Positions 33,339 through 57,430 of a stretch of 64,000 nucleotides of DNA are shown in pieces (position 1 is the stretch's first letter; every line of letters begins with the position of its first letter). The notes under the pieces are model-generated. The model ran no database searches. It was not told where the DNA came from and saw only the letters and a program-made list of their open reading frames with translations. Origin of the DNA: Candidatus Nanohaloarchaea archaeon (GTDB lineage Archaea; Nanohalarchaeota; Nanosalinia; Nanosalinales; Nanosalinaceae); contig CP046106.1 in the NCBI GenBank assembly GCA_013343275.1, forward strand, positions 544,001-608,000, in the 5' to 3' direction. The translations under genes were made by a program, and so were the position numbers.

Positions 33339-34091
33339 CTAGGCCGATTCCAGAACCGCTCCCAGAACTATAAACAGCACACCTGTCAGGAAGAGTTTTG
33401 TCAGGTCTTTCCAGGTGTCAAGGTCGAAATGTTCTCTGTACATCGCTGCCGACACCAGGCTTCCGCAGATACCTGCCACTACGAAACCTGCCATTTCAAG
33501 GGTTGCATGTGGAACATAGGCTACTGGTGATGGAGTCTTACCTGAACCCATAATCAGCTCTGCTATACCTTTGAGCTCTGAGACAAGCTGGGCGATGAAA
33601 ACTCCGAGAACAGAGGCATTCCAGGTAAGTATGAAAGCTCCTGCAGAACCTATAATCGCTGATACAGCGAATATCGAAAGATACAGCACCAGGTTATTAG
33701 ATAATACTACAAAGAAAATATCAGGTATTACCGCATTTCCTGCGAGGCCTAGCTGGGCGGCCTGTTCGCTGAAAACAGCAGTCTGCATAGCAAAGTCCTT
33801 GGTGAAGAACAGGCCTAGCGAGAGGAATGCTACGAACTCTCCCAGGAATAATGACCCATAAAACTCTATTTCATCGCTGTGAGGCCTTCCCCTATCTTCA
33901 TCATCAAGGAAGACCCTGGTCAATGGATATACGAGAGGTATAGATGCAAAAACTACAGAAAGAACAGATGTCTGGCCCGGAAAAACTATTTTAGCTACAG
34001 CAAATCCTGTTAAGCCAGATATAAGGCCTAGCAGGGCTACGAATAAAAGACTTCCCTGTTTCTCCTCCCTCAGAATAAGTTCCGGCAGCAT
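33339..34091 (-). CDS. SpoIIM/DUF95-like membrane protein
   Basis: NN-x-x-L, WNA-x-x-x-G, PH-x-x-x-E, A-x-x-ES terminus. Confidence 0.7.
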   Translation of the reverse strand: MLPELILREEKQGSLLFVALLGLISGLTGFAVAKIVFPGQTSVLSVVFASIPLVYPLTRVFLDDEDRGRPHSDEIEFYGSLFLGEFVAFLSLGLFFTKDFAMQTAVFSEQAAQLGLAGNAVIPDIFFVVLSNNLVLYLSIFAVSAIIGSAGAFILTWNASVLGVFIAQLVSELKGIAELIMGSGKTPSPVAYVPHATLEMAGFVVAGICGSLVSAAMYREHFDLDTWKDLTKLFLTGVLFIVLGAVLESA

Positions 34092-34134
34092 AAAGAAGAA
34101 ATGATGGTAGGTGGTTTAAACCGGTTTTCCAGAA

Positions 34135-35289
34135 CTATCTCTGGAGTTCTAGATCGATGTTTCTGTCCCACATTTCCTGGGCCAGTTCGCCGTCGTACAT
34201 CATCTGCTGCACCAGCTCATCTGCATTCTCCTTTCTCTCCTGGTGCTCCTGAAGGAACTCGTTCAACTCTTCTACCAGTATTTCCTTGATCTCGCCAGTC
34301 ATCATCTCGCCGGAGGAGTACTTCTCAGCGATCTCCCGGATTCTCTCATCGTCCTCCATCAAAAGGTTTCTCAACCACTGGAAAGAGGTATCAACTGCCA
34401 GATCAGCGCCTTCCTCACGGTGTTCTTCCAGAGTATCGCCTCCACCTGAGTAAGCATGCTTCTTGACCTTCTCCTCGACCTCTTCAGGGCTGTCATCCAG
34501 CATGATCGCGGTCTTCGGCTTCGAGGAACTCATCTTCCCCTCAGGCCCTGTCAACGCCGGGATAAACTTGGAGTGGATCGCCGCTGTCTTCTTGTGGCCG
34601 AACTTCTCGGCAATATCCCTCTGGATCCTCCAGTACGGATCCTGATCGATCGCAGCCGGGATAACGCACCGCTTGTCCTCGAAGAATGTCGGAATATTCT
34701 GTATAGCAGGCCAGAAATTCATTCCAATATTGGTCGAGCCTTCAAAGCCGAAAACGCTCTGGGCCTGTGAATTATTGATTTTTTCGGCAATCTTCACGAT
34801 TCCATCATACATGTGACCCATGTATTCTCTGTTTCGGAAGATGAATGTCTTGTCAGGATCAAAGCCAACAGCTGCGATCTCCCTGATATTATCCTCTGCG
34901 TACTTATCGATTTCCTCATCTGTTATATCGCGGTCCCAGTACTTCTCGTCGTCAGTAACCTGTATATACACGTTGACATCGAACTTCTCCTGAATCCACT
35001 TCGTGAAGTAGAAACTGATAATATGGCCTATATGCATCTTGCCGCTAGGCCCGATACCGGTATACAGGAAGAAGCCGTCTTCTTCCTCGTACTCATCAAG
35101 CGCCTTGTCAAGGCCTCTGTGGGAGTAGATGAAGTCTCTCTTCATGTAGAGGTTCTCATCTCCAGCCAGATCGAAGAATCTCTCCTTCAACTCCTCGTCG
35201 ATCTCCTCGGTTCCGAATTTATCTATTAGTCTATCGTAGTCTACCTGACCCTCCACATCGAAAGGCGTCACATCAAAATCCTCTGCCAT
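34135..35289 (-). CDS. trpS: Tryptophan--tRNA ligase (archaeal type)
   Basis: VTPF, DY-x-x-LI-x-x-FG, YTG-x-GPS-x-x-MHIGH, DQDPY, KMSSS; AGGAGG SD. Confidence 0.96.
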   Translation of the reverse strand: MAEDFDVTPFDVEGQVDYDRLIDKFGTEEIDEELKERFFDLAGDENLYMKRDFIYSHRGLDKALDEYEEEDGFFLYTGIGPSGKMHIGHIISFYFTKWIQEKFDVNVYIQVTDDEKYWDRDITDEEIDKYAEDNIREIAAVGFDPDKTFIFRNREYMGHMYDGIVKIAEKINNSQAQSVFGFEGSTNIGMNFWPAIQNIPTFFEDKRCVIPAAIDQDPYWRIQRDIAEKFGHKKTAAIHSKFIPALTGPEGKMSSSKPKTAIMLDDSPEEVEEKVKKHAYSGGGDTLEEHREEGADLAVDTSFQWLRNLLMEDDERIREIAEKYSSGEMMTGEIKEILVEELNEFLQEHQERKENADELVQQMMYDGELAQEMWDRNIDLELQR

Positions 35290-35305
35290 AGTTTTTATCG
35301 TCCTC

Positions 35306-36358
35306 CTAGTTAAGTTCTGATCGAAGAAAGCTTTTCAAGATTTCACAGTATGCTTCCAGGCTTTCAACCTCCACATACTCGTCTTCAGCGTGAAGATTGT
35401 AGCCTTCCGGGCCGAAACAGACCGCAGGAACACCTTTCTCGGTGAAGAACCTCATGTCGCTCGCAAAGTTCTCCCTCCTGAAATCAACCGTTTCTCCAGA
35501 AACTTCCTCAGCTGAAGTTTTCAGGGCCTGAGCTCCAGAATTTTCCTCCGAAGTCTCCAGCATCGGGGCCTCCGCCAGGACTTCGTACTCCAGGCCTCCC
35601 ATTTCTTCTAGATCTCTCAGAACTTCCTCCTTCGGGTACTGGTTTGAGTACCGGATATCTACCTGTAGAGAGGCCTTGTCAGGTATCTGGTTGACAGGTC
35701 CTTCAGCGGAGATATTGCCCAGGTTGATCGTGGTTCCAAACTCGGCCTCATGGTTAAATCCTGATCTGAACTCCATGTACTTTTTGAGGAGTTTTTCGGC
35801 CGCGTTCTCGCCTCTATCAGGTTTGGACGCGTGAGCGTTCTCCCCTGAGGCCTTTAACTCGAGCTGGAGAACCCCTTTCTGCTCTGTGACTATTGATGGG
35901 AAATGACCTGAGTCATCGGGCTCCGCTGAAATTACCAGTTCCGGTTCAATCCCTGTTTCTTCAGTTACGTGGCCTGTGCCGTTAAATCCTCCTCTTTCCT
36001 CGTCAGATGTAATTAGGATTCCTAGATTCTCGGCCTCAACTTTCTGGGCAGCTTCGATGATACAGGCAATCCCTGACTTCATGTCGGCTGTTCCTCGGCC
36101 GTAAATTCGGCCGTTACGCCTTTCTGGTCGGAAGAGCGAGTCTTTTGCATCTACCACATCGATATGGCCGTGGAGGAGAATTTGCGGTTCACCCCTCGTA
36201 GCCAGTAGAGATTTTTCTCCTTCCTCCTCGAATCTCTGTATATCAAAGTCTTCTGGCAGTTCTTTCTCAACCAGTTGAAGGCCTTTCTCTATTTCTCCTA
36301 GGTTTCCTTCTACCGTCCTGAGTTTTACCAGTTCTTCAGTCATTTCCTCTATATTCAT
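35306..36358 (-). CDS. M20 family metallo-hydrolase (ArgE/DapE-like)
   Basis: HGHIDVV, GRGTADMK, DEE-x-GG, HAS-x-P, H-x-x-DEYV; ATGA overlap with the upstream GNAT gene. Confidence 0.88.
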   Translation of the reverse strand: MNIEEMTEELVKLRTVEGNLGEIEKGLQLVEKELPEDFDIQRFEEEGEKSLLATRGEPQILLHGHIDVVDAKDSLFRPERRNGRIYGRGTADMKSGIACIIEAAQKVEAENLGILITSDEERGGFNGTGHVTEETGIEPELVISAEPDDSGHFPSIVTEQKGVLQLELKASGENAHASKPDRGENAAEKLLKKYMEFRSGFNHEAEFGTTINLGNISAEGPVNQIPDKASLQVDIRYSNQYPKEEVLRDLEEMGGLEYEVLAEAPMLETSEENSGAQALKTSAEEVSGETVDFRRENFASDMRFFTEKGVPAVCFGPEGYNLHAEDEYVEVESLEAYCEILKSFLRSELN

Positions 36359-37129
36359 GCCATTCTCTCGCCTCCTTCAGTGAATTCGTAGTCGGACTTC
36401 CTGGCTGCTCTTCCCAGGCTGTGTGCGGCCTCCGATTCGCTGACCTCTCCTGCTACAACCAGGGCATCGCCATCCTCGAAGGACATGTTGAGGCCTTCTT
36501 CTCCATACATAAAGTCCTGGAAATCATCGTTCTCCGGTATGCTGGAGTACATTCCTCCATCGTAGATGTCTGCGTAGGCCTCTCTCATTACCGGGCCTTC
36601 CATTTCTTTGTCGACGTCGATCGCTTCTCCCAGATCCTGTACTTCTTCCAGCATCTCCTCTTCTTTTCCTGGCTGTGGGTATACTTCGAAGCAGTTGTCT
36701 GCGCAGGCGTACATGTTCGGGTTCTGCGTTCTATAGCCGAAAAGCTCGTCTCCCTCCGCCTCCTCCACCACTCCTCTGCTGAGTAGTGTACTGCCGACGC
36801 ATCTTCCCTGCAGGCTATCGTCAACCGCAAGACCTACCTCGTAGACAGTGTCGTCCATCCGGGATAGGCCTGAGAATGCTACGTACTCTCCGTCCTCGTC
36901 TTTTGCTGTGACGAGTGTAGGTACTCTGAGGTGGTCTCTTGCGTCCTGATCGGTTGGGACACCTTCCTTGGAGAAAGCGTTCTGCGCGACGTCAACAAGC
37001 TGTTGTTCGGCCTCGGAGTTGGCCTCTAGAAATTCTTCTGGATTTTGATGTACCTCTATCTCAAGGCTTCCAAAAACGTCCACCCTGTTCTCGGGCTTCC
37101 GATGTCGAATAGTTTTCAGTCTGTTCCAT
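36355..37129 (-). CDS. GNAT-fold acyltransferase-like protein, proposed to be made by +1 frameshift joining 37129-37073 to the ORF called from GTG 37083
   Basis: LAV-x-x-x-LQGR-x-VGS acetyl-CoA motif; the upstream ATG frame MEQTENYSTSEAREQGGRF-W-KP* carries the TTT-TGG cassette and is acidic, whereas the +1-frame sequence upstream of the GTG is basic and has no ATG. Confidence 0.65.
37061..37129 (-). promoter_or_regulatory. Trp-sensing uORF B: MEQTENYSTSEAREQGGRF-W-KP*
   Basis: CAG GGT GGA CGT TTT TGG AAG CCT TGA; a +1 slip UUU->UUU enters the GNAT frame. Confidence 0.75.
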
Positions 37130-37332
37130 AAGTCAAATCACGTAAGCAAAGATTGCCAGAAAAGCTTTAAATAGCTTACAGAGCTTCTACCTGGTTTTTA
37201 GAGATAGCTGAAGCTGTAGAGATAAGTTTAACCTGGAGTAATACTGGCAAAGCTAAAATAAAACGTATGTGGAGTTAAGGCCATGAGAAGTTCTTGATTG
37301 AGGAGATCTGTAGATAGCTGTGGCTCAGAGAA

Positions 37333-37377
37333 TTATTTCTGTGCAGGAGGCCAAAAGCATCCACCTTTCTGAGCCAT
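37333..37377 (-). promoter_or_regulatory. Trp-sensing uORF A: MAQKGGCF-W-PPAQK*
   Basis: ATG GCT CAG AAA GGT GGA TGC TTT TGG; TTTTAA about 29 nt upstream; flanked by the 9-bp inverted repeat TGGCTCAGA/TCTGAGCCA. Confidence 0.7.
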
Positions 37378-37400
37378 GTTGAGATGTTGAAGGTTCACTG

Positions 37401-38159
37401 TTAAAATTCTTTTCTCTGGGCCCGGTAGCCAAGCGTTCCATTGTATCCATTTGTTGACATGAGAACCGGGTAGAACGGTTTTTCAGCACTTAAACTCTCG
37501 TCTCCTCTGGTAGCGTAGACTTCACCTTCCTCCACTTTCTTGAAGTTCTCGGCCTGGAAGCTCCAGTCACCTTCTACCTTATCAAATACCTCGAATAACT
37601 GTGGACTTGATTTCCGGGCCTTACCGTCTATAACGTTCTGGGAAGCTAGGAAGTTTTTGATTACACCTAGCGCGTTTTCAACGGCCTGATCTGTTCCCTG
37701 GAATCCCGCCTCTACAACCACTCCTTCTACGTGTTCGTGAAGCTTCCCTTCTTTACCAGGGAAATGCGCTGCATTCTTTGCTCCTGTCGATGCAAGCATG
37801 TCCCGGATTTCGTCGTTCAGAGTTGAGCAGGTTGCGAAAGGTAGCGGATAGGAATGCGTAGTGTGTATGTCCAGAAGCTTTGTGCCTTCTACAGCATCGA
37901 TTATCTTCGAGGCCAACCTCTCCTCGTACCTCTCTGACTCAGGATCTCCAGGAAAGGATCTGTTCAGGTCTGACTCGAGAAATCTCTGACCTTCAAGAAG
38001 CGCTTTTTCGTTTCCGATCACAAACTGGACCGGTTTACGGAACTCTCTTTCCTCCGATAGAAACTTCTCGATCGCTTTCTTGCCTGCCGGCTCATCACCG
38101 TGAACCGAGCCCATTACAGTAAATTCAGGCTCTCCATCTCCTCTTCTCACTACCTTCAT
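37401..38159 (-). CDS. Succinylglutamate desuccinylase/aspartoacylase family (M14-like)
   Basis: HGDEPAG, DLNRSFPG, LDIHT, VEAG. Confidence 0.88.
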   Translation of the reverse strand: MKVVRRGDGEPEFTVMGSVHGDEPAGKKAIEKFLSEEREFRKPVQFVIGNEKALLEGQRFLESDLNRSFPGDPESERYEERLASKIIDAVEGTKLLDIHTTHSYPLPFATCSTLNDEIRDMLASTGAKNAAHFPGKEGKLHEHVEGVVVEAGFQGTDQAVENALGVIKNFLASQNVIDGKARKSSPQLFEVFDKVEGDWSFQAENFKKVEEGEVYATRGDESLSAEKPFYPVLMSTNGYNGTLGYRAQRKEF

Positions 38160-38199
38160 AAAAAGAAAATTCTTCGAAGGTAATTCAAAAAGATTTCAC

Positions 38200-39360
38200 C
38201 TATCTCAGGGCCTCTACGGCCGCCAGTTTCTCTCCACTCAGATACCTGACAAAGGCTCCTCCTGCTATAGAGACATGTGAGAAATCTTCCAGTTCGTAGT
38301 TAAATCTCTGTACAAGCGAGGACGTGTGGCCTCCTCCAAGAACAGTGTAGGCATCGGACTCTGCCATGGCCTTGACTATTTTCCGCGTTCCTTCCGGATG
38401 TTCTTCGAAAGCACCCATAGGCCCTTTCATAACTACGGATTCCGCATCCCTGATCTCTTCAGCAAATTTTTCTGCAGTTTCAGGGCCTATATCCCACGTC
38501 ATTTCGTCCGGTATTTCCTCTACCCTGTACTCTCCAGAATCCGTTCTGACGTCCTCCGGGAGCACTACCTTCTCGCTGTAGTTATTGATTACTCTCTCAA
38601 GTTCTCCTTTCTTTGAGTCAAGGCCGTGGTCTTCAATCCACTGCTTCTTCTCTCCCAGATCGTGGCCTTCTATAATGAGAGCGAGTTCTCCAGGAATTCC
38701 CCCCAGTAGGACTTTATCCACAGATTCTATCATTTCATCCAGTATACCGATCAGGTCGGAAGGTTTCTCCCCACCGAGAACAAGCACCCCGTTATCAAAC
38801 CTGTCTCTAACTTTTCCACAGCTCTCAAGCTCCTTCTCCATGACAGGGCCTGCGTAAGAATCCAGTTTCTTGGTAAACCCTACCATGGAGCCATGGCTCC
38901 TGTGAGCTGCGGAGAACGCATCATCGACGTAGAGATCAAATTCTGGTGCAATCCTTTTCACAAATATATCTTCGGCGTGTTGTTCTGCCGAGGCATTTCT
39001 GAGCTCCTCTGAAAGAAACCTTACATTCTCCAGCAGCGCTACACCTCCTTCATCCATGTCTTCAACAGCTTCAGCAAGTTCAGGCCCGAAGAAACCCGGA
39101 ATAAATTCTACTTCATTCCCGAGAGAATCAGATAGGATCTCTGAATGCTTTTTCAGCGACATGAAATCGTTTCTACCTGGTCGGCCCTGGTGAGCCATCA
39201 CCACTGTCTTCGCGCCTCTATCAGAAAGCTCCTCTACCGTCTCAAGGTACCTCTTGAATCTTACAGTTTTCTGTGGTTCGCCGTCCTCAATCGGAAGGTT
39301 TAGATCAGTTCTGAGAAGAACTTCCTGGCCCTGAATATCAATATCATCTATAGAGTTCAT
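38200..39360 (-). CDS. pgk: Phosphoglycerate kinase
   Basis: RTDLNLP, AHQGRPG, LENVRF, DAFSAAHR, DIGPET, GGGHT, HVSIAGGA. Confidence 0.95.
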   Translation of the reverse strand: MNSIDDIDIQGQEVLLRTDLNLPIEDGEPQKTVRFKRYLETVEELSDRGAKTVVMAHQGRPGRNDFMSLKKHSEILSDSLGNEVEFIPGFFGPELAEAVEDMDEGGVALLENVRFLSEELRNASAEQHAEDIFVKRIAPEFDLYVDDAFSAAHRSHGSMVGFTKKLDSYAGPVMEKELESCGKVRDRFDNGVLVLGGEKPSDLIGILDEMIESVDKVLLGGIPGELALIIEGHDLGEKKQWIEDHGLDSKKGELERVINNYSEKVVLPEDVRTDSGEYRVEEIPDEMTWDIGPETAEKFAEEIRDAESVVMKGPMGAFEEHPEGTRKIVKAMAESDAYTVLGGGHTSSLVQRFNYELEDFSHVSIAGGAFVRYLSGEKLAAVEALR

Positions 39361-56626: not shown

Positions 56627-57430
56627 TCAAATGATTTTTCTTTTCAAAACCCAGAGATGCTGTAGCGGGATATTCGCGAGAGCGTTCAGAGTGAACAGGT
56701 AAGGTCTGTGCAACCTGTCTTCTCGAGCTTTGAAGAAAAGTTTCTTCTGTCCAGAGAAGCTTGGAACGATCTCTGTGGCCTCCTCCAATTCGGGCGCATT
56801 TCCAGTAGTGAGAGCATAGCAGTTGTAGTACGACATTTTCTGCGCCTCCATCGCGTAGTCAACTGCCCTCTGTGAGAATATTCTGTAAACCGGCTGAGGT
56901 ACTGCGAGAAGCATGGAGTTAAACATGCTTCCGAAAAGCTGTGAAGGCCAGTGCCTTTCAGGTTCAAGTTTGCCCAGCCATTCTATATCAAGTTCAGAAC
57001 CATATATCGATTTCATCTGACCAAATATACCTTTAAGCAGCACTTCGTCTGCGATAAAGTAGTCGACAAAAAACGGTAAACCAAAAATTCTGTGGTGGAC
57101 AGGTTTCTTGAGCCTTTCCTGTGAAGTTACCTGCGTCCAGACAAATATGCCTGCTGCTCTCTCAAACCAGTACTGCCGGGAGGATACATCGAAAAACTGT
57201 CTCTCAAAATCAGCTATTTCTTTCTCAACCTGCTGAATAACCTCTTTATCTGGGTTTCCTTCCAGCACCAGCAGGAGATCCAGATCGCTTGATTCAGATA
57301 CTTCTCCACGCACGCCACTACCATATGCCTGAACAGAAGACACCTCATACCTTTCAACCACTTCAGACAGCTCTTCCAGATATTCTCGAGTTCGTTCAGG
57401 CAGCTGCAAATCAGATAAATCGAACTCCAT
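56627..57430 (-). CDS. Pol-beta-type nucleotidyltransferase domain protein
   Basis: YGS-x-x-RG-x-x-x-x-x-SDLDLL motif plus a helical C-terminal region. Confidence 0.7.
   Translation of the reverse strand: MEFDLSDLQLPERTREYLEELSEVVERYEVSSVQAYGSGVRGEVSESSDLDLLLVLEGNPDKEVIQQVEKEIADFERQFFDVSSRQYWFERAAGIFVWTQVTSQERLKKPVHHRIFGLPFFVDYFIADEVLLKGIFGQMKSIYGSELDIEWLGKLEPERHWPSQLFGSMFNSMLLAVPQPVYRIFSQRAVDYAMEAQKMSYYNCYALTTGNAPELEEATEIVPSFSGQKKLFFKAREDRLHRPYLFTLNALANIPLQHLWVLKRKII

Follow-up and report, generated by a model that had tools for sequence, protein, structure and literature searches.

What does a short open reading frame (ORF) do when it lies just behind a predicted promoter and runs, one base out of register, across the start codon of a gene for a tryptophan-free acyltransferase? 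This question is raised by a locus on the minus strand of the window analyzed in this study, a stretch of 64,000 nucleotides (nt) that forms part of a nanohaloarchaeal genome consisting of a single contig of 915,886 bases. Here, a leader ORF (upstream ORF, or uORF; 37061..37129) of 22 codons plus TGA, with its ATG at 37129..37127 and its TGA at 37063..37061, encodes the peptide MEQTENYSTSEAREQGGRFWKP and overlaps the 5' end of a gene for a GNAT-fold acyltransferase (36355..37083), whose product of 242 amino acids, counted from a GTG at 37083..37081, contains no tryptophan (Trp). The offset of 46 between the two starts (37129-37083) places the GTG frame at +1 relative to the ATG frame, and in the GNAT frame upstream of the GTG, which is open as far as a TGA at 37140..37138, neither ATG nor GTG nor TTG occurs. 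An initial annotation of the window had described this layout correctly and had read the GNAT gene as split by a Trp-gated +1 frameshift. The results presented here suggest, with moderate confidence, that the cassette is a conserved dual-coding translational control element heading the unit formed by GNAT, an M20-type deacylase gene and, in some cases, the tryptophan--tRNA ligase gene trpS in Nanohaloarchaea. Whether the GNAT protein starts at the GTG, with its synthesis gated by a translated leader ORF, we regard as an evenly balanced question on the sequence comparisons, and this is the reading favored below.

Conservation of the two-frame arrangement

The GNAT family is small, with 12 proteins matched among 5.8 billion. 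Matches were found in 15 of the 70 genomes of the class, and widening the search to the phylum returned the same 70 genomes; a viral collection contained none of the more distant subfamily members (P0009-P0012 and P0014-P0020). The 5' end of the gene could be read at 15 loci, 12 of them from the genomes of 11 species and three from metagenome contigs; one locus ending at a contig edge and three genomes containing only distant paralogues were left out. At every one of the 15 loci, codon 1 is GTG and the product opens with V-(D/N)-(A/V)-F-G, the core G-GTG-RAY-GYN-TTT-GGA is kept, and an ATG leader ORF of 19-25 codons occurs in the same register, beginning 22-49 nt upstream of the GTG and stopping 20-53 nt beyond it. 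In the window the core reads G GTG GAC GTT TTT GGA (37069..37084), which the GNAT gene reads as V-D-V-F-G and the leader ORF as G-G-R-F-W-(K); across the loci, the leader-frame reading is ...G(G/E)(R/C)(F/V)W(K/N/S).... The sole Trp codon of the leader ORF (TGG, 37070..37072), which in a frameshift model would be the "hungry" codon of the A site, is invariant (15/15); the codon before it is TTT in nine loci and GTT in six, and position +9 is limited to T or G. Insertions and deletions between lineages come in threes. An overlapping same-register ATG ORF is found at 74 of 854 crude gene starts of the source genome (8.7%), so its presence at 15 of 15 related loci goes beyond chance. Two overlapping ORFs in a 0/+1 arrangement are thus conserved across species, a check in other genomes that the initial annotation had itself proposed. 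In addition, the loci share the layout of a regulatory uORF, a conserved short ORF that lies between the predicted promoter and the main start, carries its own initiation signal and overlaps the main start codon. The core occurs only once in the 915,886-base source genome, where a second copy would have suggested a regulon.

A run of five T residues (T5, 37072..37076) spans the putative slip site, and it is this run, with nothing further in their favor, that could suggest a homopolymer sequencing error or a recently frameshifted pseudogene. The same run is present in independent genomes (L002, L004, L010, L017, L018 and L026) and in metagenome contigs (L027 and L028), and DNA contigs of relatives from four public metagenome runs, belonging to four other studies, span 37043..37120 with no insertion or deletion listed there. 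Moreover, the register is kept at all 15 loci, six of which lack the T5 run, and the GNAT ORF is uninterrupted, with conservation extending down to 33% identity. The conserved register and the four-study contigs rule out a sequencing error, so the run is not a misread T4, and artefact or decay as an explanation of the locus is exceedingly improbable. Since the two-frame arrangement is kept at 15 of 15 loci, it is not an error or a pseudogene and is therefore a programmed feature.

Constraint on codons and reading frames

Codon choice was compared among 12 distinct GNAT genes (three near-duplicates of the 15 were dropped), which share 26 columns with an invariant residue of degenerate coding. 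A single codon is kept only at V1 (GTG), F4 (TTT) and G5 (GGA), while the other 23 of the 26 columns use two to four codons. In the source genome TTT is the minor Phe codon (27%), and GGA and GGT account for 40% and 20% of Gly codons, respectively. The invariant TGG of the leader frame forces the minor codon TTT in the GNAT frame. In addition, the T of the GTG is the third base of a leader-frame Gly codon (GGT), a four-fold degenerate site, yet it is invariant at all 15 loci. Positions +4 to +9 vary in a manner that fits GNAT-frame coding, with changes that are silent or conservative there but radical when read in the leader frame. Of the four variable sites, two fall on third codon positions of GNAT. 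The resulting replacements are D/N and A/V for GNAT and G/E, R/C and F/V for the leader peptide, and the change of GAC to GAT, which is silent in GNAT, converts Arg to Cys in the leader frame.

Upstream of the GTG, the ratio of nonsynonymous to synonymous differences (pN/pS) is 0.43 for the leader frame, compared to 0.98 for the GNAT frame and 1.44 for the third; these values come from a small sample of non-independent pairs, drawn from the four lineages (4 of the 15 loci) in which codons can be aligned one to one. The leader peptides have a polar or acidic composition, and translation of this DNA in the GNAT frame gives a strongly basic sequence, as expected of a non-coding frame in a halophile. 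Judging from these comparisons, selection upstream of the GTG acts on the leader frame. Both frames of the cassette are conserved, with extra constraint at silent sites and selection on the leader frame.

RNA structure was considered as a cause of the conservation of the core and was ruled out. The RNAalifold consensus of 12 loci reached -1.18 kcal/mol with essentially no covariation, the single-sequence fold had a z-score of -0.31, and a search of 34000..38300 against Rfam at E <= 1 returned no match.

Predicted promoter and initiation signals

Across the genome, TTTAA is most frequent 28-32 nt before ATG starts, the geometry of leaderless mRNAs, while GGTGA peaks at -11 to -14 (genes led by a Shine-Dalgarno site) and GTGAT at -10 to -8. 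The promoter geometry of the source genome therefore points to mostly leaderless mRNAs alongside Shine-Dalgarno-led genes. In the window, the TTTAA of a predicted archaeal TATA box (ATTTAAAG, 37165..37172, minus strand) starts 42 nt upstream of the leader ATG, and a GTGAT motif (37137..37141, minus strand) lies 12 nt upstream of it, as either the predicted 5' end of the transcript or a putative Shine-Dalgarno-like site for the leader ORF. Both signals recur in the relatives: TTTAA starts 34-42 nt upstream of the leader ATG at all 15 loci, and GTGAT or GTGGT is found 9-12 nt upstream at 13 of them, locus L017 having GTTAA at -9 and locus L018 no match. Given this position of TTTAA and the genome-wide leaderless peak, the transcript is predicted to start 4-12 nt before the leader ATG, which is thus the predicted first start codon on a very short leader. 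Duplex energies computed against the 3' tail of the 16S rRNA (GGAUCACCUCC) were -6.8 kcal/mol for the well-spaced Shine-Dalgarno-like site of the leader ATG and -3.1 kcal/mol for the GTG, the latter at background level; the M20 gene and trpS, each with a GGAGG site of its own, reached -10.1 and -8.3 kcal/mol, respectively.

An internal promoter producing a leaderless transcript from the GTG was also considered and was rejected, as no conserved TATA-like motif was found 24-36 nt 5' of the GTG when the loci were read by eye, without formal scoring. At a single locus (L028:520-600), the GTG of the GTGAT motif at the predicted transcript start is in frame with GNAT and the frame is open for 35 codons, so a leaderless GTG start there could yield the GNAT frame directly. 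Elsewhere in the window, pheS (33299) has a GTG start with a TATA box at leaderless distance.

A proposed GUG start inside the leader ORF

In the reading favored here, the TATA box would give rise to an mRNA with a leader of about 4-12 nt, whose first AUG opens the leader ORF of 19-25 codons, and this ORF would be translated. The GNAT protein would most likely begin at the invariant GUG (Met-Asp-Val-Phe-Gly...). This codon lies within the leader ORF, 22-49 nt from its ATG and shifted by one base, and lacks its own Shine-Dalgarno site and promoter. Ribosomes loading at the 5' AUG would have to cross the GUG and would end 20-53 nt past it, so that GNAT synthesis would be set by the leader ORF. 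Gating could operate through competition for the GUG or its occlusion, and possibly through re-initiation after the leader stop. Additionally, the single invariant UGG lies three codons past the GUG, and a ribosome awaiting Trp-tRNA at this codon would cover the GUG, which would tie GNAT output to the supply of Trp-tRNA. We infer that the leader ORF is translated, that the GUG serves as a start codon, and in which direction tryptophan would act; detection of the leader-frame segment MEQTENYSTSEAR would mark translation of the leader.

Several observations on the protein are consistent with a start at the GUG. Gene calls in other lineages put GNAT-frame starts at or near the GTG (MDVFG, MVDAFG in 4/4 cluster members, MKPKRVDVFG and MFG). 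In the wider family the protein begins 2-12 residues ahead of strand 1 and carries no long extension, distant paralogues likewise begin a few residues before it, and strand 1 of the AlphaFold model begins at residue 5 counted from the GTG. No protein aligning across the junction was found among the 12 family hits from 5.8 billion proteins, among the subfamily hits or in a search with residues 1-40 of the read-through product. The downstream ORF does not lack a start codon of its own, as the GTG is invariant at 15 of 15 loci and ATG or other starts are called nearby elsewhere. The description of GNAT as a split gene is not supported: in these searches no homologue aligns across the junction, and paralogues and the wider family begin just before strand 1. 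The cassette is also of relevance to annotation, since gene callers disagree on the GNAT N-terminus and assign it in four ways (MDVFG, MRKPSRVDAFG, MFMRKPSRVDAFG and MVDAFG).

However, a number of points weigh against a gated GUG. Ribosomes translating the leader would cover the GUG, which leaves access to it unexplained, and re-initiation must reach back 20-53 nt from stops at variable positions. The GUG lacks a Shine-Dalgarno site or a TATA box at the distances used by the genome. Stalling at the UGG would repress GNAT, a logic that is less obvious beside trpS. In addition, three features fit a shift site better, namely the invariance of T10-T12 and of A15, which fixes TTT and GGA, the restriction of +9 to T or G in 15 loci, and the purifying selection on a leader peptide of halophile-like acidic or polar make-up.

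A possible frameshift at the Trp codon

The first alternative is a programmed +1 frameshift, a generalized form of the initial reading. Ribosomes starting at the 5' AUG would wait for Trp-tRNA when (U/G)UU occupies the P site and UGG the A site, then slip forward by one base, read GGA and continue as GNAT, with a product of 257 amino acids. Reading TTTT as one step does give a computed translation of 257 residues (...GGRF-GSLEIEV...), in agreement with the fusion of about 257 residues expected earlier. The upstream (A/G)GGUG(G/A) would serve as an internal Shine-Dalgarno-like pause site or stimulator, and scarce Trp-tRNA would raise GNAT synthesis. We regard this mechanism as possible but tentative. 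A fuller version seems likewise possible but less likely than not. In it, a Trp-tRNA-gated shift would read (U/G)UU-UGG-A as (U/G)-UUU-GGA, and the leader-GNAT fusion would be made only at low levels of charged tRNA-Trp. This would switch on amino-acid salvage next to trpS by a Trp-free acyltransferase/deacylase pair, joined in some lineages by a racemase.

Shifts of +1 at UUU followed by a slow codon are known from influenza PA-X and amalgaviruses, a shift stimulated by a Shine-Dalgarno element is known from prfB, and frameshifting at Trp codons occurs in Trp-starved cells. At the cassette, the 0/+1 arrangement at 15 of 15 loci, the position of the ATG where it is expected relative to the promoter and the Shine-Dalgarno-like site, and the lack of an upstream ATG in the GNAT frame at most loci would all follow from a shift. 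No variation occurs in N-UUU-GGA, not even at the silent sites T12 and A15, only T or G is found at position +9, and purifying selection acts on the leader frame, which would be expected of an N-terminal extension. Furthermore, (A/G)GGUG(G/A) is able to pair with the 16S tail, and the GNAT and M20 proteins lack Trp. Codon pairs of the form NTT-TGG are six-fold under-represented in the genome (24 observed compared to 151 expected), which also speaks for a shift. This avoidance is part of a general one of NNT-TGN pairs, with observed/expected ratios of 0.20 (TGG), 0.29 (TGT) and 0.36 (TGC), which does not extend to other NNT-TNN pairs.

Other evidence is difficult to reconcile with a shift. The zero-frame P-site codon is UUU at nine loci and GUU at six, and although N-UUU-GGA is invariant, re-pairing of the GUU-reading tRNA on UUU fails at the first base. 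Thus, of the TTT TGG slip site proposed initially, the TGG stands at all 15 loci, while perfect UUU-to-UUU re-pairing does not extend to the six loci with GTT TGG. The invariant GTG and the coding-like variation at +4 to +9 require the extra assumption of the Shine-Dalgarno-like stimulator, whose spacing to the P site, when aligned to the 16S tail, is about 7 nt compared to 3 nt in prfB; at this distance the ribosome would be relaxed rather than strained. No unsplit homologue was found in the protein searches, and the gene calls of other lineages assign the GNAT frame a start codon adjacent to the GTG. A low prior must also be assigned to a +1 shift in Archaea, as a 2021 review of archaeal recoding (PMC8211752) records one demonstrated case of -1 frameshifting and a +1 event that only "appears to be present" in a haloarchaeal virus.

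A third possibility is that the leader acts through its own peptide, by arrest of the nascent chain (...GG(R/C)(F/V)W..., often with Pro before UGA), or through a stalled 5'-proximal ribosome that protects the operon mRNA, with GNAT still translated from the GUG. Toward its C terminus the leader peptide is conserved and shows purifying selection. The ending is Lys-(Gln)-Pro-TGA at nine of the 15 loci and Pro-Thr-TGA at one, and all loci of the Pro-ending clade retain the Leu codon CTT from which the TGA arises. However, the Pro-stop endings follow from GNAT codons (AGC or AAC, then CTT GAR, or AAC CCT GAA) and could be due to chance, for which reason a Lys-Pro-stop arrest signal was given less weight. 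Three lineages end otherwise (ESA, SRR and IRS), and the position of the stop, 20-53 nt after the GTG, shows no fixed geometry. Arrest or stalling alone is accordingly an improbable explanation.

Comparison with known systems

Regulatory uORFs are known from bacteria, uof-fur being an example. As in those uORFs that overlap or abut the main start (PMC13285730), ribosomes on the leader ORF would cross the main start and set its translation. The cassette differs in belonging to a DPANN archaeon, in its overlap of 23-56 nt in one register, in a 16-nt junction fixed at silent sites of both frames and in a GUG without a Shine-Dalgarno site. Classes of frameshifting are summarized in PMC8211752. A second comparison is the +1 shift of prfB (release factor 2), which shares a short AUG ORF, an NUU P-site codon, a slow A-site codon, an upstream Shine-Dalgarno-like element, a gene body in the +1 frame and a sensor logic. 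Here, in contrast, the A-site codon is a sense codon (UGG) and not a stop, the slip codon is UUU or GUU, the Shine-Dalgarno-like element is further off, and an in-frame GUG start is present. The +1 sites of the UUU_CGN type (influenza PA-X, amalgaviruses) and "hungry codon" shifting, the latter mentioned in that review (PMC8211752), likewise place tRNA-Phe on UUU in the P site before a slow A-site codon; however, those cases are viral or from the laboratory, and six of the 15 loci here lack a zero-frame UUU.

The attenuators trpL and pheL (of pheST), as well as TnaC, also have a short leader ORF containing a codon for the amino acid served by a downstream gene, in the present case trpS. Unlike trpL and pheL, the leader holds a single Trp codon and no tandem, it overlaps the start of the next gene, and trpS has its own ribosome-binding site; alternative hairpins and a terminator are absent, as the fold values and the Rfam search given above revealed no terminator or antiterminator structure and no Rfam family. 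The spacing from Trp to Pro-stop does not match that of TnaC.

Literature searches on nanohaloarchaeal frameshifting and on archaeal uORFs returned no description of the cassette. Through either mechanism, gating or shifting, a known kind of control would gain a new example from Archaea. If the gating leader ORF is correct, the cassette would offer a clean model of how uORFs act on internal starts without Shine-Dalgarno sites in Archaea. If the frameshift is correct, Archaea would have their first cellular +1 frameshift. It would also define a new recoding class, in which the sensor is the charging of tRNA-Trp, and would be the first conserved "hungry" sensor of this type to use a sense codon. 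Translational control in Archaea is poorly known, and the cassette is short, sharply defined and evolutionarily validated. To our knowledge, host-dependent DPANN archaea cannot make their own amino acids.

The GNAT and M20 genes

On the minus strand, the order of genes is pgk, an AstE/AspA-like gene, a 270-nt spacer, the leader/GNAT feature, the M20 (ArgE/DapE-type) deacylase gene (35306..36358, stop included), trpS (34135..35289) and a SpoIIM-like gene. The M20 start overlaps the GNAT stop as ATGA (36358..36355), and a gap of 16 nt separates the M20 stop from the trpS start (35306 to 35289), both as initially annotated. The GNAT product matches PF00583 at 23.6 bits (gathering cut-off 20.7), and its AlphaFold model, which is of moderate quality (mean pLDDT 67.7, with residues 136-207 poor), gave 30 Foldseek matches in the PDB at E <= 0.001, the top-ranked being GNAT acetyltransferases with E about 3e-4. 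By domain and modeled fold, therefore, the protein belongs to the GNAT acyltransferase superfamily. The M20 product matches PF01546 (E 3.7e-31) and, below the cut-off of 217.6, TIGR01910 (160.9 bits).

GNAT adjoins M20 in 11 of the 14 loci listed, the exceptions being L006 and L007, which have no M20, and L028, which is cut; at L026, a paralogue in genome G058, M20 is convergent. An MR_MLE (enolase-superfamily) gene (MR_MLE_C, E 3.4e-40) lies between M20 and trpS at L010 (4783-5880), L017 (1911-2318) and L018. The window operon contains no racemase gene, and in the source genome only a weak match was found (G000:515072-515335, E 5.7e-6). Gene neighborhood suggests the enzymatic roles of GNAT and M20, in that operons for D- to L-amino-acid conversion (GNAT + NSAR/OSBS + M20) similarly contain GNAT and then M20, joined by MR_MLE at L010, L017 and L018. 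In contrast to those three-gene operons, the window has GNAT and M20 only, and its GNAT forms a small family of its own.

A possible link to tryptophan and trpS

The assignment of trpS follows from the NCBIfam equivalog TIGR00233 (280.8 bits, cut-off 176.75). Across the family, trpS lies between the AstE-like and SpoIIM-like genes, and at least 9 of 30 trpS loci have no GNAT and show the AstE-like gene immediately before trpS, which suggests that the trpS neighborhood may be an inherited gene order. In 19 upstream regions inspected, nearly all had a Shine-Dalgarno-like site before trpS, and no Trp-bearing leader was seen before trpS in genomes without GNAT. The paralogous GNAT at L026 has the same cassette and is not adjacent to trpS. 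Because of these GNAT-less trpS loci, the Shine-Dalgarno sites of trpS itself and the position of L026 away from trpS, the cassette is best assigned to the GNAT gene. The earlier proposal that Trp starvation would induce GNAT, the amidohydrolase and tryptophanyl-tRNA synthetase (TrpRS) together is also not supported in that form, since M20 (-10.1 kcal/mol) and trpS (-8.3 kcal/mol) have Shine-Dalgarno sites of their own, making strict joint induction by coupling unlikely.

Trp is absent from GNAT in 14 of 14 loci and from M20 in 10 of 11. In the source genome, however, 23.8% of proteins of 200-300 amino acids and 10.8% of those of 300-420 amino acids are free of Trp, and because of these base rates the lack of Trp in the two enzymes is only suggestive of a link to tryptophan. 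The invariant Trp codon, together with the Trp-free enzymes, keeps such a link possible. ARAGORN identified 33 tRNA genes in the source genome; tRNA-Trp, tRNA-Asn and a second tRNA-Met were not among them and were probably missed because of introns.

Two very different types of TrpRS share the slot before the SpoIIM-like gene (loci L042-L071). The type found in the window is 78-96% identical across 12 genomes of eight genera and 68-70% identical to proteins of Aenigmatarchaeota. Genome G001, of the same genus as the source genome, has the other type in this slot (MPDIDPWG..., 35-39% identical), with a GNAT that is 87% and an M20 that is 77% identical, so that the switch of TrpRS type looks like a displacement in place. 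At L065 (G064:C8), where the 5' end of GNAT is cut by the contig end, the order is GNAT, AstE-like gene, trpS, compared to AstE-like gene, GNAT, (M20), trpS elsewhere. Genome G060 contains, beside a full trpS, extra pieces of the same TrpRS type at C7:540275-541421 (two adjacent pieces, residues 3-206 and 201-384) and at 56790-57119 (residues 3-112), which may be split or duplicated copies.

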